This document shows positions 21,438-49,010 of a DNA stretch of 64,000 nt, piece by piece. A program made the position numbers and the translations under genes. Source of the DNA: a virus; the IMG/VR virus record IMGVR_UViG_3300046003_007336, positions 32,001-96,000 of that record. One strand, 5' to 3'. The notes under the pieces were generated by a model. That model saw nothing but the letters and a program-made list of their open reading frames with translations, did no database searches and was not told where the DNA came from. Numbering within the stretch: position 1 is the first letter of the stretch; each line of letters opens with the position of its first letter.

Positions 21438-21466
21438 TTGACGCCAAATCGTCCTCGAAGTATAAA
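21438..21466 (+). promoter_or_regulatory. sigma70-like promoter of the Ala/Pro tRNA operon
   Basis: TTGACG-N17-TATAAA; also contains TATAAATA. Confidence 0.75.
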
Positions 21467-21475
21467 TAGGACGTT

Positions 21476-21583
21476 ATGTTGATCCTGTTCACCCTCGCTG
21501 CTCTGACCGCAGCCGCTGCCATCGCAGCGGGACAGGCCCCCGTGCGCTTCGCACCAGCCCCGGCTAGCCGACCGCGACCCTAA
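21476..21583 (+). CDS. Putative Ala/Pro-rich leader peptide MLILFTLAALTAAAAIAAGQAPVRFAPAPASRPRP
   Basis: 35 codons with 12 Ala and 5 Pro, between the promoter and tRNA-Ala/Pro genes. Confidence 0.6.
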   Translation: MLILFTLAALTAAAAIAAGQAPVRFAPAPASRPRP

Positions 21584-21666
21584 AGGGTAGCGGTATATAA
21601 GCAGCCAGGATGGTGATCGGCGCGATGCCGATACGTCCAGCAAAACAATCTAGGAAACGTGGCCTT

Positions 21667-22505: not shown

Positions 22506-22577
22506 GGGCGGCACAGCCAGTGCAATGGGAATAAGCTTTCCCAGAAGAGTGGGAGTGGCTCTCCCCTCCGTCCACCA
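22506..22577 (+). ncRNA. Degenerate tRNA-like RNA with Ala acceptor identity
   Basis: GGGCGG/CCGTCC with G3:U70, A73, CCA; hairpins TGGGAA/TTCCCA (loop contains AGC) and GGGAG/CTCCC. Confidence 0.5.
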
Positions 22578-22582
22578 AACAG

Positions 22583-22661
22583 GGGCCAGAGAACCACAGG
22601 CGTGGTTCGACGGTGAAGGGGGTCGCTCCTCCATGGGGTTCGATGCCCCACTGGTCCACCA
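22583..22661 (+). ncRNA. Non-canonical tRNA-like RNA with Ala acceptor identity
   Basis: 7-bp acceptor GGGCCAG/CTGGTCC (G3:U70), A73, CCA; canonical T-arm TGGGG-TTCGATG-CCCCA; 7-bp hairpin in place of the D-arm. Confidence 0.7.
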
Positions 22662-22689
22662 TTTCAACACCAACATCCTGGGAGGATGC

Positions 22690-23544
22690 TATGACACTGC
22701 GGGACGCCTAACAGAGACCTACCGGACTTTCTGCCTCGAACGCGGCATTGAGTTTCATGAGGTCAAGAGTGTGAGACCACACGACAACACGACCTTGTTC
22801 TGCCCTGCGGGGATGCAGCAGTTCAAGGAAGACTACCGGGGACATCGTCGCGGGACCGTATCCAATATTCAGTCCTGCATCCGGCTCAATGATCTGGATG
22901 AAATCGGCGACCAAACCCACCACCTAACCTTCGACATGATCGGGCTGTTTTCGTTCCGTGACATGAGCGTTCTGGAGACCATCGATTTCTGGTTCGAATT
23001 CCTCTCCAAGATTGGCATCAAGCCCGACGTGGTCACCATCCACCCGGACAAGATGCTGGACTGGCGAGAACTCTATCGGGGCCGCGACGTAGAAATACGG
23101 CCGGACCCGGAGTGCACGTGGTCGGACGGCGGCATGGGTGGATACTGCACGGAGTTCTACGTCAGAGGCGTGGAGATCGGCAACATCGTGAATACCAACG
23201 GAGATTCAATCGACGTCGGTTTCGGGATGGAACGCCTTCTCTGGGTTCTCGGCGAAGAAACGCCACCGCGTGGGGACATCCTGGTCCGCACCATCGACCG
23301 CATCGTTGAGTCGGGATACCGGCCCAGCGGCAAGCAGCAGGGTCATGTGCTCCGGCGCCTGATCGGGTTGCTGACAGACGAGGGCAGCCATCCCAACCAC
23401 CCCGAGGTCGTCAGCGAGACGTCCAGACGGGTGAAGCTCTCGGAACGCTTCGACCGCCTTTGGCCGAAGCATCAAGACAAGTCGCCAGAGTGGTGGCTGG
23501 ACACCCACGGTATCGTGGTGTCTGAAATGGTCCTCAGGGTGTAG
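22690..23544 (+). CDS. alaS: Truncated alanyl-tRNA synthetase (aminoacylation domain only); start codon uncertain
   Basis: TTLFCPAGMQQFK, NIQSCIRLNDLDEIGDQTHHLTFDMIGLFSF, GYCTEFY...EIGNIV, IDVGFGMERL, GHVLRRLI; about 285 aa with no editing or C-Ala domains. Confidence 0.85.
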   Translation, partial: YDTAGRLTETYRTFCLERGIEFHEVKSVRPHDNTTLFCPAGMQQFKEDYRGHRRGTVSNIQSCIRLNDLDEIGDQTHHLTFDMIGLFSFRDMSVLETIDFWFEFLSKIGIKPDVVTIHPDKMLDWRELYRGRDVEIRPDPECTWSDGGMGGYCTEFYVRGVEIGNIVNTNGDSIDVGFGMERLLWVLGEETPPRGDILVRTIDRIVESGYRPSGKQQGHVLRRLIGLLTDEGSHPNHPEVVSETSRRVKLSERFDRLWPKHQDKSPEWWLDTHGIVVSEMVLRV

Positions 23545-33560: not shown

Positions 33561-33644
33561 TGCGGTCTCCGGTGGTTGGATTTATTTATCCAATTGTACG
33601 GAAGCGTTCACAAACCAAAAAATGCCGAAAATGCTAAATAAGAT

Positions 33645-33673
33645 TTGACAGCAGGAACCCTCCTCTGTATATT
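33645..33673 (+). promoter_or_regulatory. sigma70-like promoter of the Gly/Glu tRNA operon
   Basis: TTGACA-N17-TATATT. Confidence 0.8.
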
Positions 33674-33682
33674 CGAGAAACT

Positions 33683-33796
33683 ATGACAAACCTGTTCAAC
33701 ACGTCTGGCCTGAACGCCGCCCTCCTGGGCGGTCGCGGTGGCGTGCGCGGTGCTGGGGAACGAGAACGTTCCGCCGGGCTGCGAGGTTGTCTCTAA
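33683..33796 (+). CDS. Putative Gly(/Glu)-rich leader peptide MTNLFNTSGLNAALLGGRGGVRGAGERERSAGLRGCL
   Basis: 37 codons with 9 Gly and 2 Glu, between the promoter and tRNA-Gly/Glu genes. Confidence 0.6.
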   Translation: MTNLFNTSGLNAALLGGRGGVRGAGERERSAGLRGCL

Positions 33797-33867
33797 ACAC
33801 CTCTTCCTTCCTATAGGAACAGTCCGGCGAAGATCACATAGGTTGGCCCCTGTGTGACATTGCTGAT

Positions 33868-33941
33868 GCGGGTGTAGCTCAATGGTAGAGCCGCTGCCTT
33901 CCAAGCAGAAGACGAGAGTTCGATTCTCTCTATCCGCTCCA
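33868..33941 (+). tRNA. tRNA-Gly(TCC)
   Basis: Cloverleaf, U73, CCA. Confidence 0.95.
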
Positions 33942-33956
33942 GCAAATCTCCAGTCT

Positions 33957-34028
33957 GTTCCAGTAGCTTAAAGGCAGAGCAACTGATTTTCAATCAGTCA
34001 GGTGGCGGTTCGACTCCGCTCTGGAATA
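33957..34028 (+). tRNA. tRNA with TTC (Glu) anticodon on an atypical body
   Basis: Cloverleaf ACTGA-TTTTCAA-TCAGT; D-stem GCTT/GAGC; no CCA. Confidence 0.75.
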
Positions 34029-34029
34029 C

Positions 34030-34104
34030 GCGGCTATAGCTCAGTGGTAGAGCGTCTGCTTGCCAAGCAGAAGGTCGGGGGTTCGAGCCCCCCTAGCCGC
34101 TCCA
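34030..34104 (+). tRNA. tRNA-Gly(GCC)
   Basis: Cloverleaf, U73, CCA. Confidence 0.95.
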
Positions 34105-34138
34105 TTCCTCCAACGCATACCCCATTACTCATCTTCGC

Positions 34139-34213
34139 GGTCCCTTCGTCTATCGGTTAGGACGCTAGACTTTCAATCTGGAAAGACGGGTTCGATTCCC
34201 GTAGGGACTACCA
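34139..34213 (+). tRNA. tRNA-Glu(TTC), canonical type
   Basis: GGTCCCTTCGTCTATCGGTTAGGAC body typical of tRNA-Glu, CCA. Confidence 0.95.
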
Positions 34214-34227
34214 AGAATATTGGCTCT

Positions 34228-34302
34228 GTCGCCGTAGCTTAACGGTGGAGCGTCCGCTTCTCAGGCGGTTGGTTGCGAGTTCGATTCTCGTCGGCGACAC
34301 CA
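34228..34302 (+). tRNA. tRNA-Glu(CTC), atypical body
   Basis: Cloverleaf, TT-CTC-AG loop, CCA. Confidence 0.85.
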
Positions 34303-39811: not shown

Positions 39812-40738
39812 ATGAGCGGCCATATCGAACGCCTGCACGACCTCGCCGACGCCCTGGCAGCGCACGCCCTGCTCGATACCGATCTTCAGGTGATGGCCCA
39901 CGACGCCGCTCTGCACGCGGTCGATCTCCGTGCCCTGCTGGCCGGGCAGTCCAAGTCGGTCACCTGGGTCCTTGAGAGCAACGTCTTCGCCGAAACCTGC
40001 TTCGACCGCATGATGGAACATTTCCGTCAGCGCGGCGTCGAGCACCACGTCGTGCGCATCATCCCCTTCGTCCATGAGATCGAGGGACGGGTTCCCGACG
40101 TCAATGGACCGTGCGTGGTCTATGGAAGCATCGGCATCCAGAAACTGGCCGACCGCCACGGCTGGTCGCCCGGCGTTTTCCCGGTCCCGACCGAGGACGA
40201 GGCCGCCATCGCGCTCGGCGACCTGTATTTGAATTCCGACGCCATGATGATGAAGATGTCCGAGGTCGAAGCCTATCTGGCTAAGACGATCACGGGCGAA
40301 GAAGTTTTCATCAAGCCCGATACCGACACCAAGGAGTTCGCCGGTCAGGTGATCGACGCCGCCCAGTTCTCGTCCTGGTATGCCGGGATGATCGATTCGG
40401 GCTACCTCGACGGTAACGATTTTTACGTCGTCGTGTCCTCGCCGAAGAAACTCGGCTGCGAGTGGCGTGTGGTGGTCGTGGACGGCAAGATCGTCACGTC
40501 GTCCCTCTACCGGCAGTGGGGCATGGTGAAGGCCGAGGAGCATATCCTTCCCGAGGTGGTCGAGGTCGTCATGGCTGCGCACGCCAAACTGGTCCCTGGC
40601 CCCGTCTATGTGATCGACATCGCCCAGCACGGTGATGAGTTCAAAGTCATCGAATACAACACCTTCAACTCGGCGGGCCTCTATGAGTGCAACGTCGAGG
40701 CCATCATCGACGCCGTCTCGGAGTATGTCGGGCGTTGA
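39812..40738 (+). CDS. ATP-grasp domain protein (R2K-clade-like)
   Basis: VFIKPDTDTKEFAG, EWRVVVVDGKIV, YVIDIA...KVIEYNTFNSAGLY. Confidence 0.75.
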   Translation: MSGHIERLHDLADALAAHALLDTDLQVMAHDAALHAVDLRALLAGQSKSVTWVLESNVFAETCFDRMMEHFRQRGVEHHVVRIIPFVHEIEGRVPDVNGPCVVYGSIGIQKLADRHGWSPGVFPVPTEDEAAIALGDLYLNSDAMMMKMSEVEAYLAKTITGEEVFIKPDTDTKEFAGQVIDAAQFSSWYAGMIDSGYLDGNDFYVVVSSPKKLGCEWRVVVVDGKIVTSSLYRQWGMVKAEEHILPEVVEVVMAAHAKLVPGPVYVIDIAQHGDEFKVIEYNTFNSAGLYECNVEAIIDAVSEYVGR

Positions 40739-40752
40739 AGGGTCACCTCACC

Positions 40753-42064
40753 ATGTCGGTGGACGAGGTTCGTGATGCCATTCGCGACGACAGGGCCAGA
40801 CTAGAAATCGAACTCGTCCTCCGCGTCGGATATGATGCGAAGATCGATTACATCCCGCACACCAAGGGGTACAAGATCGGCGGCGGATGGTCGCGTATGC
40901 GTGCCAACGTTCGCCGGTCCAAGAGACCCTTCGTGATTATCATGCCGGGCGGTACGTCTCGCTGGCGCCGGTTCGAAACCTGGGAAGCCCTGTCCGAAGC
41001 CGTGCAGGCAATGTGATGGAAGTCCTCTTCAATACATTGCGGGCAGTGGGCGCCGTCTTGCTCTTCGTCGGCATCCTCTATGGAGGCGGCAAGCTTATCC
41101 AGAAAGCCACCATGGCCCCGATGGGCTGGTTGTTGCGCGGGTGCATGAAAGATTTCTGGTTCCATCTTCAGTCCGCCATGCCGGGAAACTACGAGGTCAA
41201 CAAGATCATCTATAGCAGGGCCCCGACTTTTCTCAGTCGGTTCTCTCCGTATCGGCATTTCCTTATCCTAACCCCCATCGTCGGATGTTTGGCACTAGAT
41301 GCCATCACGCGAGATATGCGACGTGAGAGCAAATGGATTGCGCGCGGCCTCGGCGTATGGGGGCTGGACAGCTTTCGAAAGCATTTCTATCAGAACGATA
41401 TCGAAATCATCGAATGGTTGAGCGACAACTGCGAAGGCAAGTTCGAGTTCATCTTTACTGAGATGGGCCGCCGCATACCGAGTCGTTTCTCTGTGTCCCA
41501 GCGGGACGTGATGATTTCGTTCTCGTCCCCGGCCGATTTCCTCAAGGTCAGATTGGTGTTCGACGCCAAGCTGCCATCGGAACATAATTGATGATCTGGC
41601 TCTGTCAGCGGTTTAGGCACCAGACTGGCTGGGAGGGTGCCGACGAATGGGAGTCGCCGAGAAGACGCGCCACAAGACTTAACTGCAAGACCTTTGTGTT
41701 CGAGTTTTCTACCGGAGTCGCGCACCTGTTCCGCCGCTATCGCCAGCCTCTGCGTTTCCCCCTGTCAGGCTTTCCGTTCAGCCCGGCAGACTGGCAGGCC
41801 ACGATCTCTCTGCGGACCCATCTGAAACGCTCGGTCGATACGACCGACGACCATTTGCCCATCTTCCCCATTGGTGAAAACGACGCCCTCGACTGGCTGA
41901 TCAAGAACCTCAAAGGGAAGGTGAAGTTCACCGCTGTCCTCGACCGAAATGACGTAGCTGGTCTCGTCAACGATGCCGCGTATGCCGTCCTGGCATTCAC
42001 CGACACCCGCGATGAAGCCGCCTTCCAACTTTTTTTCGATGGCGGCGAAGTTTTTATTGACTAA
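40753..42064 (+). CDS. Hypothetical ORFs ~40753-41016, 41016-41591 (membrane), 41588-42064
   Basis: Overlapping junctions; last two end in the shared motif. Confidence 0.55.
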
Positions 42065-42092
42065 AGGTCACCCGTGATACTAAATAGGGGCT

Positions 42093-42169
42093 CGCGGGGT
42101 AGAGCAGTCCAGTAGCTCGTTTGGCTCATAACCAAAAGGTCGGCGGTGCGAATCCGTCTCCCGCACCCA
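42093..42169 (+). tRNA. tRNA-Met(CAT), initiator-like
   Basis: C1:A72 mismatch, CGCGGGGTAGAGCAG start, CT-CAT-AA loop; only two G-C pairs at the base of the anticodon stem; followed by terminator AAAAGCCCTCGGTCTCACCGGGGGCTTTTT. Confidence 0.88.
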
Positions 42170-43441: not shown

Positions 43442-44107
43442 ATGAACCGTCGTACTTTCTTCGCCAGCATTCTCGGCGCCTCAGTTGCGGGCACGCTCGG
43501 CAGTCTCGCAGTTCCCGCATGGGCGCGCGCCGACGAGAGCCTGAACATCTATGTTCGCCTGATCGACCTCCAGAAGGCGATGCTGGCCAACCACGAAACC
43601 TGGAAGAGCGGCCCGGCGTTCGCCCACGTGCCCGAACTCGACGACCCCTTGGATACGCGCCCCGATGTCGAAAAGCGTCGCCGCCACCTCGTCGAACAGC
43701 GAATCGCTGACCGCCACGCGGCCCGCAAGAACTACGATCTGACCCCGGCTGACGCCGTCCTCGCGCACCTGAACGCCCATTTCGCCCCCGACGCCAGCGA
43801 CGTCAGCGAGGCCCTCGTGCGCCAAGCCCGCGCCGAGGCCAACGCGGTTGGCGGCGTGAAAATGTCCAGAACGGATTTCCGTCGCGAGGTCGCCATTGAG
43901 CAGGCTCGGCGAGAAGTCCGGGCCGTGTTCAACCGAGAAATCGAGATCGACACCATGTCGGAGGCCAGCATGCGCCGCGTGCTGAAATCGACGGTCGCCG
44001 TCGCGGTCGTCAAGGGCATGCTGTCGGTGCACAAGATGCCCCTCGACCCCAAGAAGATGGGCGCCTTCAACGAGTTCGCGACGAAGTTCAGGCACATCAT
44101 CCTTTAA
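43442..44107 (+). CDS. Exported protein with twin-arginine (Tat) signal peptide
   Basis: MNRRTFFASILGASVAGTLGSLAVPAWARA; GGAG SD, TTGACA promoter. Confidence 0.7.
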   Translation: MNRRTFFASILGASVAGTLGSLAVPAWARADESLNIYVRLIDLQKAMLANHETWKSGPAFAHVPELDDPLDTRPDVEKRRRHLVEQRIADRHAARKNYDLTPADAVLAHLNAHFAPDASDVSEALVRQARAEANAVGGVKMSRTDFRREVAIEQARREVRAVFNREIEIDTMSEASMRRVLKSTVAVAVVKGMLSVHKMPLDPKKMGAFNEFATKFRHIIL

Positions 44108-44142
44108 CTTGACAGTTTCCGGCCAAGGTGATTAAATAACTG

Positions 44143-44545
44143 CGTGTTGGTGACCAAATCAACCGCTTAGGCAGGACCGGGGTGCGAATCCCCGCGCCTC
44201 CACCAAAAACACATAGCCCGCTGAGATACGCGGGGAGCCGACTGTCATGTAAGCCGGGTTGGGGTTTCTAGAGCCCTGGCTATCAACGGTAGATCGGGGA
44301 CAGTCACAAGGCGGCTAGAGTTCCTTAGCGGGGGCAACAGTCTAGGCTCGCTACGACCGATATGGTCTGTGTGTTTTTGATGGGGGCGAATAGCTATCGA
44401 CTGATAGGCGTAGAGGCGAGAGACACCGGTAAGAAACGACCGAAAATCAGTTCAAATTTCTACCTGCCAACGACAACGTTGACATGGGTTCCTACGCCCT
44501 CGCGGCGTAAGGAACTCGGGGCCCACTGGGGGCCTAGCAACAGAA
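44143..44545 (+). ncRNA. ssrA: Two-piece (circularly permuted) tmRNA
   Basis: Acceptor piece ...GACCGGGGTGCGAATCCCCGCGCCTCCACCA ends at 44205; coding piece starts GGGGGCGAA at 44382 (G3:U70); tag ANDNVDMGSYALAA-stop at 44466-44510. Confidence 0.93.
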
Positions 44546-44635
44546 GGGGAGACTTCGGTCTCCCCACCTTTGTTTCGGTTGACCGTTTCGAAATCTCCGA
44601 CTAAACCGGTCTACGAAATAATCCGAGAAAAGCCC

Positions 44636-47826: not shown

Positions 47827-48421
47827 ATGCGGATAGGCACCAAGGTTGAGCCCGAAGAGCTATCTTCCAAAATTCGTCCGATCATCATCCGTCGAAATAC
47901 ATGTGCCGACGAATGGGATGTTCGCCACAGATTCGTGGTAGAACATCTCTGTCGTGGGGACTGGGCGGGCACACTGGAGTTCTGCTACTTCAAGCATGAA
48001 GAAAACTTCGCCGTTGATTTTCTCAGCGGGGCCTACGATGCCTACCTGTACTATTTCTCCGACGAGGCCGACCGTGTCGAGTTCCAACTCCGTTTTTGCT
48101 GACTGTCCTCCTGGGCTGGGCCGACCTGGGCTAGAACGGTACATCCTCCGTGGTGAATTCACCACCATCTATATCCGAATCAGAGACGTATGGCTGCCGC
48201 ACGGATGGGTACGAAATAAACTCTGTCGAGCCGACTGGATGATGCGGATGTGGGGTGACCGTCATCGCGACGAGAAACAATGCACCTGTCCAGTGGGAAC
48301 CACGGCCTTTATGTTCGAAAGCCCTTCGGATGCCATGGAGTTCTTCATCCGCTTCGGCGCATATACGGTTTCTCCAAATTCGACGAAAAAACATATTGAC
48401 CAAACGTCGGAAGATAAATAA
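47827..48421 (+). CDS. Two small hypothetical ORFs (47827-48102; ~48095-48421)
   Basis: Contain YYFSDEADRVEFQLRF and FMFESPSDAMEFFIRF motifs. Confidence 0.5.
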
Positions 48422-48462
48422 GATCAGGAAATCGGTCGCACTGACGCGGCCCAAGGATTCGA

Positions 48463-48513
48463 ATGATGCGTTCGCTGCTGTTGCTTAGTTTGGGTGTTCG
48501 ACTGTCGGCCTAA
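48463..48513 (+). CDS. Putative Leu-rich leader peptide MMRSLLLLSLGVRLSA
   Basis: AAGGA SD; 6 Leu in 16 codons including four in tandem (CTG CTG TTG CTT); upstream of six tRNA-Leu genes. Confidence 0.7.
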   Translation: MMRSLLLLSLGVRLSA

Positions 48514-48618
48514 GGGCTTCCGGTTTCGAGCACCCGTGAAACTAGGCACGGACTGCGATCTTCCATTCGGGACAAGCTCCCAAATCTGAAATCCAGTGAC
48601 TGTGCACCAGCAGTGTAT

Positions 48619-48924: not shown

Positions 48925-49010
48925 CCCCTCGTGGTGAAATGTAGACACGCAGTCTTGAGAGGGCTGTGCCTGTAATGGGTGTGCGGACTCGTTATCCGCC
49001 GAGGGGACCA
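48925..49010 (+). tRNA. tRNA-Leu(GAG)
   Basis: Type II cloverleaf, unusual T-loop CTCGTTA, CCA. Confidence 0.85.

Follow-up and report, generated by a model that had tools for sequence, protein, structure and literature searches.

Results

A leader ORF in front of a Gly/Glu tRNA block

A block of five tRNA genes for Gly and Glu codons in a jumbo phage genome is preceded by a short leader ORF and a set of alternative RNA helices and, as judged from folding models, this element works like a multivalent leader-peptide attenuator. It is probably a ribosome-mediated attenuator that gates the output of the tRNA block, for which there are no expression data.

The stretch of DNA analysed (the window, 64,000 nucleotides) covers positions 32001-96000 of a 198,512-base virus record, which is 44% complete and belongs to a jumbo phage related to Agrobacterium phage Atu_ph07. 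Among cultured phages, the split family-B DNA polymerase is closest to those of Atu_ph07 (55%) and Sinorhizobium phage Phosso (52%); identity to the polymerases of two related IMG/VR contigs, G001 (561 kb) and G002 (415 kb), is 65-66%. In the following, the phage itself is called G000, and L205 is a metagenome contig near G002. The GC content of the phage is ~58%. A permuted two-piece tmRNA is phage-encoded at window 44105-44601 (+ strand; Rfam) and, since it is of the alphaproteobacterial type, we infer that an alphaproteobacterial host is likely. The window contains 18 of the 19 tRNA genes of the record, arranged by amino acid in three blocks (Ala/Pro, Gly/Glu and Leu) plus a single tRNA-Met; a further multi-tRNA cluster was not found in this 44% complete contig. 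The Gly/Glu block comprises the following tRNA calls:

33868-33941, + strand: tRNA-Gly(TCC)
33957-34029, + strand: tRNA with TTC anticodon, atypical body, CCA not encoded
34030-34104, + strand: tRNA-Gly(GCC)
34139-34213, + strand: tRNA-Glu(TTC), canonical body
34228-34302, + strand: tRNA with CTC anticodon, atypical body

The initial annotation of this DNA had read the block (33868-34302) as Gly, Glu, Gly, Glu and Glu. The anticodons agree with this order, but two of the three "Glu" tRNAs (33957 and 34228) have atypical, non-Glu-like bodies and are, therefore, Glu tRNAs by anticodon only. The first of these abuts tRNA-Gly(GCC) with zero spacer.

Other features were noted alongside. A tRNA-like sequence with a CCA end and a GAG anticodon loop lies within the Leu block (window ~48925-49010, + strand); it is probably a sixth tRNA-Leu, but was not called by ARAGORN even at relaxed score. 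An ATP-grasp protein of the R2K clade (PF14243) is encoded at window 39812-40738 (+ strand). ARAGORN calls with stop-codon anticodons (TTA or CTA) occur in G002, Phosso and G007 (L018(+) 439-873; L031, L034, L143). The tRNA blocks of G001 and G002 (L009, L012, L014, L018) fall into recurring sets: Arg/Leu/Lys/Trp; Ser/Cys/His/Tyr; Gly/Glu(/Asp); and Ile/Val/Ala/Pro/Gln/Asn/Met/Phe.

Promoter and coding content of the leader

Upstream of the block, the following features were assigned:

33636-33641, + strand: TAAATA motif resembling a phage late promoter; promoter function inferred from sequence
33645-33673, + strand: sigma-70-type promoter TTGACA-N17-TATATT, 11/12 consensus
33683-33796, + strand: leader ORF of 37 codons with 9 Gly and 2 Glu (translation; homologs)
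33728-33766, + strand: control codons 16-28 (segment 1), with 6 Gly (GGC, GGT, GGG) and 2 Glu (GAA) in 13 codons

Both the promoter and the ORF, with nine Gly and then Glu-Arg-Glu-Arg (codons 26-29), had been proposed in the initial annotation and were confirmed by the consensus match and by translation, respectively. The promoter is the top promoter match across 20-36 kb, and the TAAATA motif recurs 5' of most leaders in this phage group. The leader ATG is found 9 nt past the -10 box and the stop codon 71 nt 5' of the first tRNA. If this start is used, the promoter is so close to the ATG that the transcript is nearly leaderless, without an upstream Shine-Dalgarno sequence. The distance from the -35 box to the first tRNA amounts to 223, 223 and 229 nt across the three blocks of the window.

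The leader was compared with all ATG-started ORFs of 25-50 amino acids in six frames of the whole genome and ranked first of 679 for Gly plus Glu (11 of 36 residues). Codons 16-28, with 8 Gly or Glu in 13, are the best 13-codon window of the 679 ORFs; of the leader's cognate codons, only these 6 Gly and 2 Glu lie in the putative stall-sensing region. Glu alone is not enriched (2/36, a level reached by 112 of the 679 ORFs); its importance rests on its conserved position. GG dinucleotides before the switch, pooled over three lineages, are in frame in 17 of 27 cases (p = 0.0015), indicating that Gly is selected as a codon. Gly codons as a mere by-product of G-rich structure were ruled out by the ORF ranking and this in-frame bias. 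The leader peptide has no Pfam match, and that the ORF is translated is inferred.

Alternative RNA helices and the modelled switch

The RNA between the control codons and the first tRNA can adopt mutually exclusive folds, built from these elements:

33746-33783, + strand: 1:2 hairpin over the Gly-Ala-Gly-Glu-Arg-Glu codons; putative pause and anti-antiterminator hairpin, from prefix folding
33772-33781, + strand: segment 2; in 4/4 homologs it begins 5 nt past the last Glu codon
33783-33819, + strand: pair of hairpins inside the 2:3 arm, one of which has the stop codon as part of its loop (folding)
33820-33830, + strand: segment 3, which either forms an antiterminator-like 10-bp helix with segment 2 or pairs with segment 4
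33834-33865, + strand: constant hairpin (33834-33857) and segment 4 (33860-33865), together with segment 3 forming the 3:4 hairpin

Three elements described in the initial annotation, a hairpin over the stop codon (33783-33787/33799-33803), a pyrimidine-rich tract (33797-33814) and a further hairpin (33834-33857), were all recovered. The main helix had gone unnoticed: 33772-33781, inside the ORF, pairs with 33820-33829. In the four homologs described below, this 2:3 helix comprises 10, 13, 13 and 13 uninterrupted base pairs, and its pair 7 is compensatory (C-G, U-A or A-U). When the middle of the 2:3 arm was shuffled 500 times, the native arm was the more stable one in at least 499 cases for each homolog. 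The inner hairpins pair up the C/U-rich, G-poor tract 33797-33814. Both G000 and G001 form two 5-bp stems here, one of them capped by an 11-nt loop that contains the stop codon; the two sequences are identical at 23/45 positions. All lineages retain the stem over Glu-x-Glu, in G002 with altered pairs. The competing 3:4 hairpin has predicted energies of -17 to -20.5 kcal/mol across the homologs and of -20.5 kcal/mol in the phage itself.

The choice between the 2:3 and the 3:4 fold was modelled by masking a ribosome footprint of 12 nt and moving the ribosome codon by codon. In 4/4 homologs the modelled probability of the 2:3 helix was 0.8-1.0 when the last Glu codon occupied the A site, at most 0.2 one codon further on and ~0 afterwards. 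The switch codon shifted by one when the footprint was set to 9 or 15 nt; the 5-nt spacing between the last Glu codon and segment 2, in contrast, is a direct sequence feature, independent of the assumed footprint. Without a ribosome, the full-length minimum free energy fold was 1:2 plus 3:4 in G000 and 2:3 in G001 and G002.

A U-tract is absent after the 3:4 hairpin in the Gly/Glu leaders of G000, G001, G002 and L205, and with no U-tract behind any other hairpin either, the Gly/Glu leader has no intrinsic terminator. T-box riboswitches sense the charging of cognate tRNA and control antitermination, binding the tRNA directly without translation; their features, a Stem I with specifier loop and a T-box bulge, are lacking in the window, where an Rfam search at gathering thresholds gave neither a T-box nor another cis-element, only the tRNAs and the tmRNA. 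Between the stop codon and segment 3 there are only 3-4 G in 30-35 nt in 4/4 homologs, and this stretch is paired in the 2:3 fold and predicted to be free once the ribosome has moved past. The rut-like tract has a length of only ~30 nt and is mildly unusual at best (7% of 30-mers with the same GC content); the Ala/Pro leader has none.

Two other pairings were considered. Invasion of the acceptor strand of the first tRNA by segment 3 was rejected as a candidate: it was significant in only 1/4 homologs, and the own tRNA ranked 84, 46, 2 and 63 of 244. In the folds, the sequences on both sides of the first tRNA base-pair (window 33860-33865/33940-33945) and thereby hide part of the CCA; the same was predicted for the tRNAs that open the Ala/Pro and Leu blocks and for L016/L205, but not for the tRNA-Glu of G001.

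Homologs of the Gly/Glu leader

In G001, a homologous leader (L008:6014-6130) precedes a Glu-Gly-Glu block, and in G002 (L016:554-685), as in L205, an Asp-Gly-Glu-Glu-Gly block. The Gly/Glu homologs of the three lineages have in common the start position, the frame, Glu-x-Glu and the next Ala-Gly codons, which lie in segment 2; overall leader-peptide identity is 41-46%. The length of the 17-nt spacer and the -35 box are kept in G002 and L205; the spacer sequence has diverged. Between these two, 128 of 132 ORF positions are identical, and 40 of the 60 nt upstream. This comparison demonstrates conservation without a codon-level signature, because all three changed codons are non-synonymous. Asp codons follow tRNA-Asp: the Gly/Glu leaders of G002 and L205, where tRNA-Asp heads the block, have two Asp in the control region, whereas in G001 tRNA-Asp is found in the Ile block and the Ile leader there has two Asp; the Ile leader of G002 has none. 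Only three lineages are independent, and the invariant cores of segments 2 and 3 served in the search that found L205.

Further homologs are scarce. Searches of cultured phages with the element (blastn) and with the peptide (tblastn) gave tRNA matches only and no leader homolog, and a profile search of IMG/VR with the three-leader alignment led to nothing confirmed. Pattern scans gave one true homolog (L205) among 84 matches, and later scans only re-found G002 and L205; they are not exhaustive, since one scan gave only chance matches and missed the known G001 copy. None of 185,579 prokaryote genomes matched the strict leader pattern, so by that pattern there is no host homolog.

Leaders of other tRNA blocks

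The two remaining tRNA blocks of the window have sister elements of the same design:

21438-21666, + strand: 35-codon Ala/Pro leader (21476-21583) with its promoter and a U-less switch, ahead of the Ala/Pro tRNA block
48396-48618, + strand: 16-codon Leu leader (48463-48513) with its promoter and a U-less switch, ahead of the Leu tRNA block

For their cognate residues, both leaders come first among the short ORFs, of 679 in the case of Ala/Pro and of 672 in that of Leu. Thus, all three multi-tRNA clusters of the window have a promoter-proximal leader that matches their tRNAs, as the initial annotation had claimed, and each leader ranks first for its amino acids. Both sister leaders also lack a U-tract, and the Leu run is followed by the same 5-nt spacing as the last Glu codon of the Gly/Glu leader. 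A truncated alanyl-tRNA synthetase gene (PF01411, E 3e-18; window 22525-23544, + strand) lies within the Ala/Pro block and possibly is under control of the Ala/Pro leader, by analogy to pheST under pheM. The single tRNA-Met(CAT) at 42093-42169, which lies ~5 nt behind a promoter-like TTGAC...TAAATA (upstream region 42055-42092), has no leader and serves as internal negative control; a single tRNA-Gln has no leader either.

A rule blind to amino acids (nearest TAAATA, then first ATG) picks exactly the three leaders of the window. Applied elsewhere, it chose a wrong ORF for the Gly/Glu block of G002, missed both Ser leaders (one is cut by the end of the locus) and gave two non-matching ORFs. Since the own contig, 44% complete, has no further multi-tRNA cluster, the prediction that other clusters have cognate-rich leaders was checked in the relatives, and it held in two of them: leaders were found at four blocks of G001 and six of G002, and the true pairing of leaders and blocks was the best permutation in G000 (1/6), G001 (1/24) and G002 (1/720). 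Besides the Gly/Glu block, leaders of G001 precede Ser/Cys/His, Ile/Asp/Gln/Pro/Asn and Arg/Trp/Leu/Lys blocks. Leader composition tracks block content over 13 leaders, including the Asp swap. Multiplying the permutation values would overstate the case, given the relatedness of the genomes and the fact that, where the blind rule had failed, three of the 13 leaders were chosen by eye. Thr, Arg and Gln/Ser leaders were found in G003, G009 and G011.

Most leaders of G001 and G002 have U-tracts, versus none of the three in the window. In eight other leaders of relatives, which are long and not of the Gly/Glu type, a GC-rich hairpin and a U run follow. In the models, the terminator comes on right after the last cognate codon in the Arg/Leu/Lys/Trp leader of G002 and in gp469 of Atu_ph07; no clean switch was obtained for some U-tract leaders (G001 Ser, G001 Ile and G011). 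gp469, annotated as hypothetical, is a 42-codon leader (L233:7619-7747, - strand; NC_042013.1 339118-339246) whose middle is filled with the amino acids of its tRNA block; it is followed by antiterminator, terminator, U7 and nine tRNAs (Ala, Arg, Phe, Pro, Ile, Tyr, Trp, Met and Glu). Among cultured phages, a leader of this type was found only in Atu_ph07, and the genome paper of that phage does not discuss gp469 as a leader.

The blind rule gave this one clear leader in Atu_ph07, none in Phosso or G010, nothing convincing in G004 and one unexplained weak match in G007. Hence, the leader system is patchy in this phage group, in which several relatives have tRNA arrays but no leader by this rule, and the "genome-wide" supply system of the initial annotation has to be narrowed: matched leaders do extend to other blocks of G001 and G002, but neither to the whole clade nor to the single Met and Gln tRNAs.

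A further, very short type of leader was observed, with 13-15 Arg- or Thr-rich codons 24-34 nt before a tRNA, no U-tract and little structure:

L013:713-760: very short leader
L144:689-733: very short leader
L015:596-637: very short leader
L004(-) 2477-2521 (oriented): very short leader

In Atu_ph07, a short ORF with Gly-Gly-Gly-Arg-Glu-Arg (L020(-) 1105-1197, oriented) lies 94 nt before a lone tRNA-Gly(GCC); this may be chance.

Discussion

Proposed model of the Gly/Glu switch

Probably, the phage makes its Gly/Glu tRNAs mainly when ribosomes decode Gly and Glu codons slowly; the output itself is unmeasured. From the spacing of promoter and ORF we infer that RNA polymerase would start 2-3 nt before the ATG with a ribosome trailing it. 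A shortage of charged tRNA-Gly or tRNA-Glu would make the ribosome linger at codons 16-28 and block segment 1, leaving segment 2 free to form the 2:3 arm, in which the C/U-rich tract is paired; the pairing is supported by covariation, the switch point by folding models. That 2:3 is the on state, in which polymerase would read into the five tRNA genes, is inferred by analogy to U-tract leaders with the same branched arm. With fast decoding the ribosome would cover segment 2, the predicted 3:4 hairpin would form, the G-poor tract past the stop codon would be freed and, as we infer, tRNA output would drop. Since there is no U-tract, this off step needs a factor. As a guess, host Rho would load on this freed stretch, in the way described for the mgtA leader of Salmonella; this route takes up a little over half of our confidence in the attenuator and, with Rho action only inferred, falls somewhat short of an even chance. 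The remainder would be a hairpin pause together with a phage factor, or a processing or decay step. A phage-encoded Rho RNA-binding domain was not found in the 198 kb of the record. The product of the gated genes would relieve the stall, which makes the proposed circuit a negative-feedback loop on usable tRNA; the shortage could stem from starvation, phage demand or tRNA-cleaving defences of the host.

Within the attenuator reading there is a rather unlikely variant, in which the same ribosome-driven switch acts not on elongation but on maturation or stability of the pre-tRNA: segment 4 would pair with either segment 3 or the trailer of tRNA-Gly and thereby change access of RNase P or RNase E. 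The missing intrinsic terminator would fit, as would the complementarity of segment 4 (33860-33865) to 33940-33945, including the CA of CCA, a pair which the full-length fold of G000 forms and which has counterparts in G002 and L205. However, flank-trailer pairing is missing in G001, the flank in G002 lies apart from segment 4, segment 3 shows no specificity for invading the first tRNA, and a processing switch at the first tRNA would hardly control the four behind it. It is improbable that the element is a degenerate attenuator, a descendant of the U-tract type that is still translated and folded in front of a now constitutive block. The three U-less leaders of the window next to mostly U-tract leaders in G001 and G002, and the absence of leaders from several relatives, could be read in this way, but three lineages with DNA polymerases of ~66% identity have all retained the Gly/Glu layout without a U-tract, along with compensatory changes and the fixed 5-nt spacing after the last Glu codon, which argues for continued selection.

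A ribosome-mediated switch on cognate codons also has to be weighed against readings in which the match to the tRNA block is secondary or accidental. The leader could be a general sensor of slow translation, or the peptide itself could act, be it as a small protein or as an arrest peptide: in the protein sequence Glu-Arg-Glu and Ala-Gly do not vary, Arg codons are interleaved and Glu is not enriched overall. But the N-terminal half is poorly conserved (41-46% identity), the invariant codons are the helix-forming ones, composition tracks the blocks over 13 leaders and no Pfam family matches, which leaves this reading quite improbable. A chance origin, with a GC-rich, structured 5' spacer of the tRNA precursor that happens to read as Gly, can hardly be upheld and is largely refuted: the GC content of the phage and the strong folding of the leader would favour it, but not the first rank against the six-frame null, the in-frame GG bias, the conserved start and frame and the permutation results.

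Relation to known systems

Leader-peptide attenuators include leuL, pheM before pheST and the multivalent thrL and ilv leaders. The mechanism has been described for trpL, hisL and pheL (PMC1183508). The Gly/Glu element shares with the attenuators of amino-acid operons the promoter-proximal short ORF, the cognate control codons, the exclusive 1:2, 2:3 and 3:4 pairings and the switch just past the control codons, and in G001, G002, G011 and Atu_ph07 the leaders with a U-tract reproduce every part of this layout. Unlike them, the Gly/Glu class is phage-borne, has a near-leaderless start and no U-tract terminator, and gates five tRNA genes with no amino-acid biosynthesis or synthetase gene downstream; because both the intrinsic terminator and the type of downstream gene fail, we do not file it as a classical attenuator. 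We know of no classical leader peptide that senses Gly or Glu.

Leaders of the mgtL/mgtA type have no intrinsic terminator; stalling in the uORF favours a Rho-resistant fold and efficient translation unmasks a rut site (PMC12360218). The Rho-dependent attenuators of Salmonella mgtL/mgtA, corA and mgtC, and those of tnaC and speFL, resemble the Gly/Glu element in lacking an intrinsic terminator, and the polarity of mgtA is the one predicted here; different are the short C-rich tract, Gly/Glu decoding as signal, the tRNA target and the merely inferred action of Rho. In mycobacteria, leaderless poly-Cys sORF attenuators of one design occur at several loci (bioRxiv 10.1101/834739). As proposed for our phage, the sORF is a leaderless first cistron, a stall at cognate codons redirects RNA folding and one design serves several loci, but their output, occlusion of a downstream ribosome-binding site, cannot apply here since the next gene encodes a tRNA and tRNA genes have no ribosome-binding site. 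A stress-induced trn operon of Anabaena is under control of the repressor TrcR (PMC8421152, PMC10272220). There, too, a tRNA array is turned on under translational stress, but by a DNA-binding repressor that acts at initiation on the whole array and not on codon-specific blocks; attenuation or a leader is not mentioned in PMC8421152. Phage tRNAs also counter tRNA-cleaving defences, as shown for T5 with retron-Eco7, PrrC and PARIS (PMC11555353, PMC11464382, PMC10264068), which gives a phage a motive to supply specific tRNAs on demand; in T5, however, tRNA-Tyr was overexpressed from a strong promoter and no sensor was described (PMC11555353).

An attenuator on tRNA genes was not found in the literature, including the papers on Atu_ph07, AP-J-162 and jumbo-phage surveys; subscription papers were not covered. 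The published cases of such control that we found concern amino-acid and synthetase genes only. What is added here is a conserved U-less Gly/Glu class and, with Atu_ph07, a cultured phage for testing. Why phages carry tRNAs, for codon compensation or for counter-defence, is a long-standing question (PMC10264068). A switch of cognate codons before each block would mean that the phage has been selected to match each tRNA set to its own shortage, and it makes the question testable: the trigger that opens the switch during infection would tell what the tRNAs are for. A bolder proposal is that jumbo phages carry codon-specific sensors of tRNA shortage that deliver replacement tRNAs once host defences destroy or block the originals, and that the output of the Gly/Glu class is neither an intrinsic terminator nor plain Rho, for example ribosome-controlled tRNA maturation or a phage-encoded termination factor; we put it forward tentatively, as unlikely in its full form. 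With this, attenuation would no longer be confined to enzymes but would include tRNA genes, with Gly and Glu as additional amino acids; a different output step may be revealed by the U-less class, and leaders of this kind could report charged-tRNA levels.
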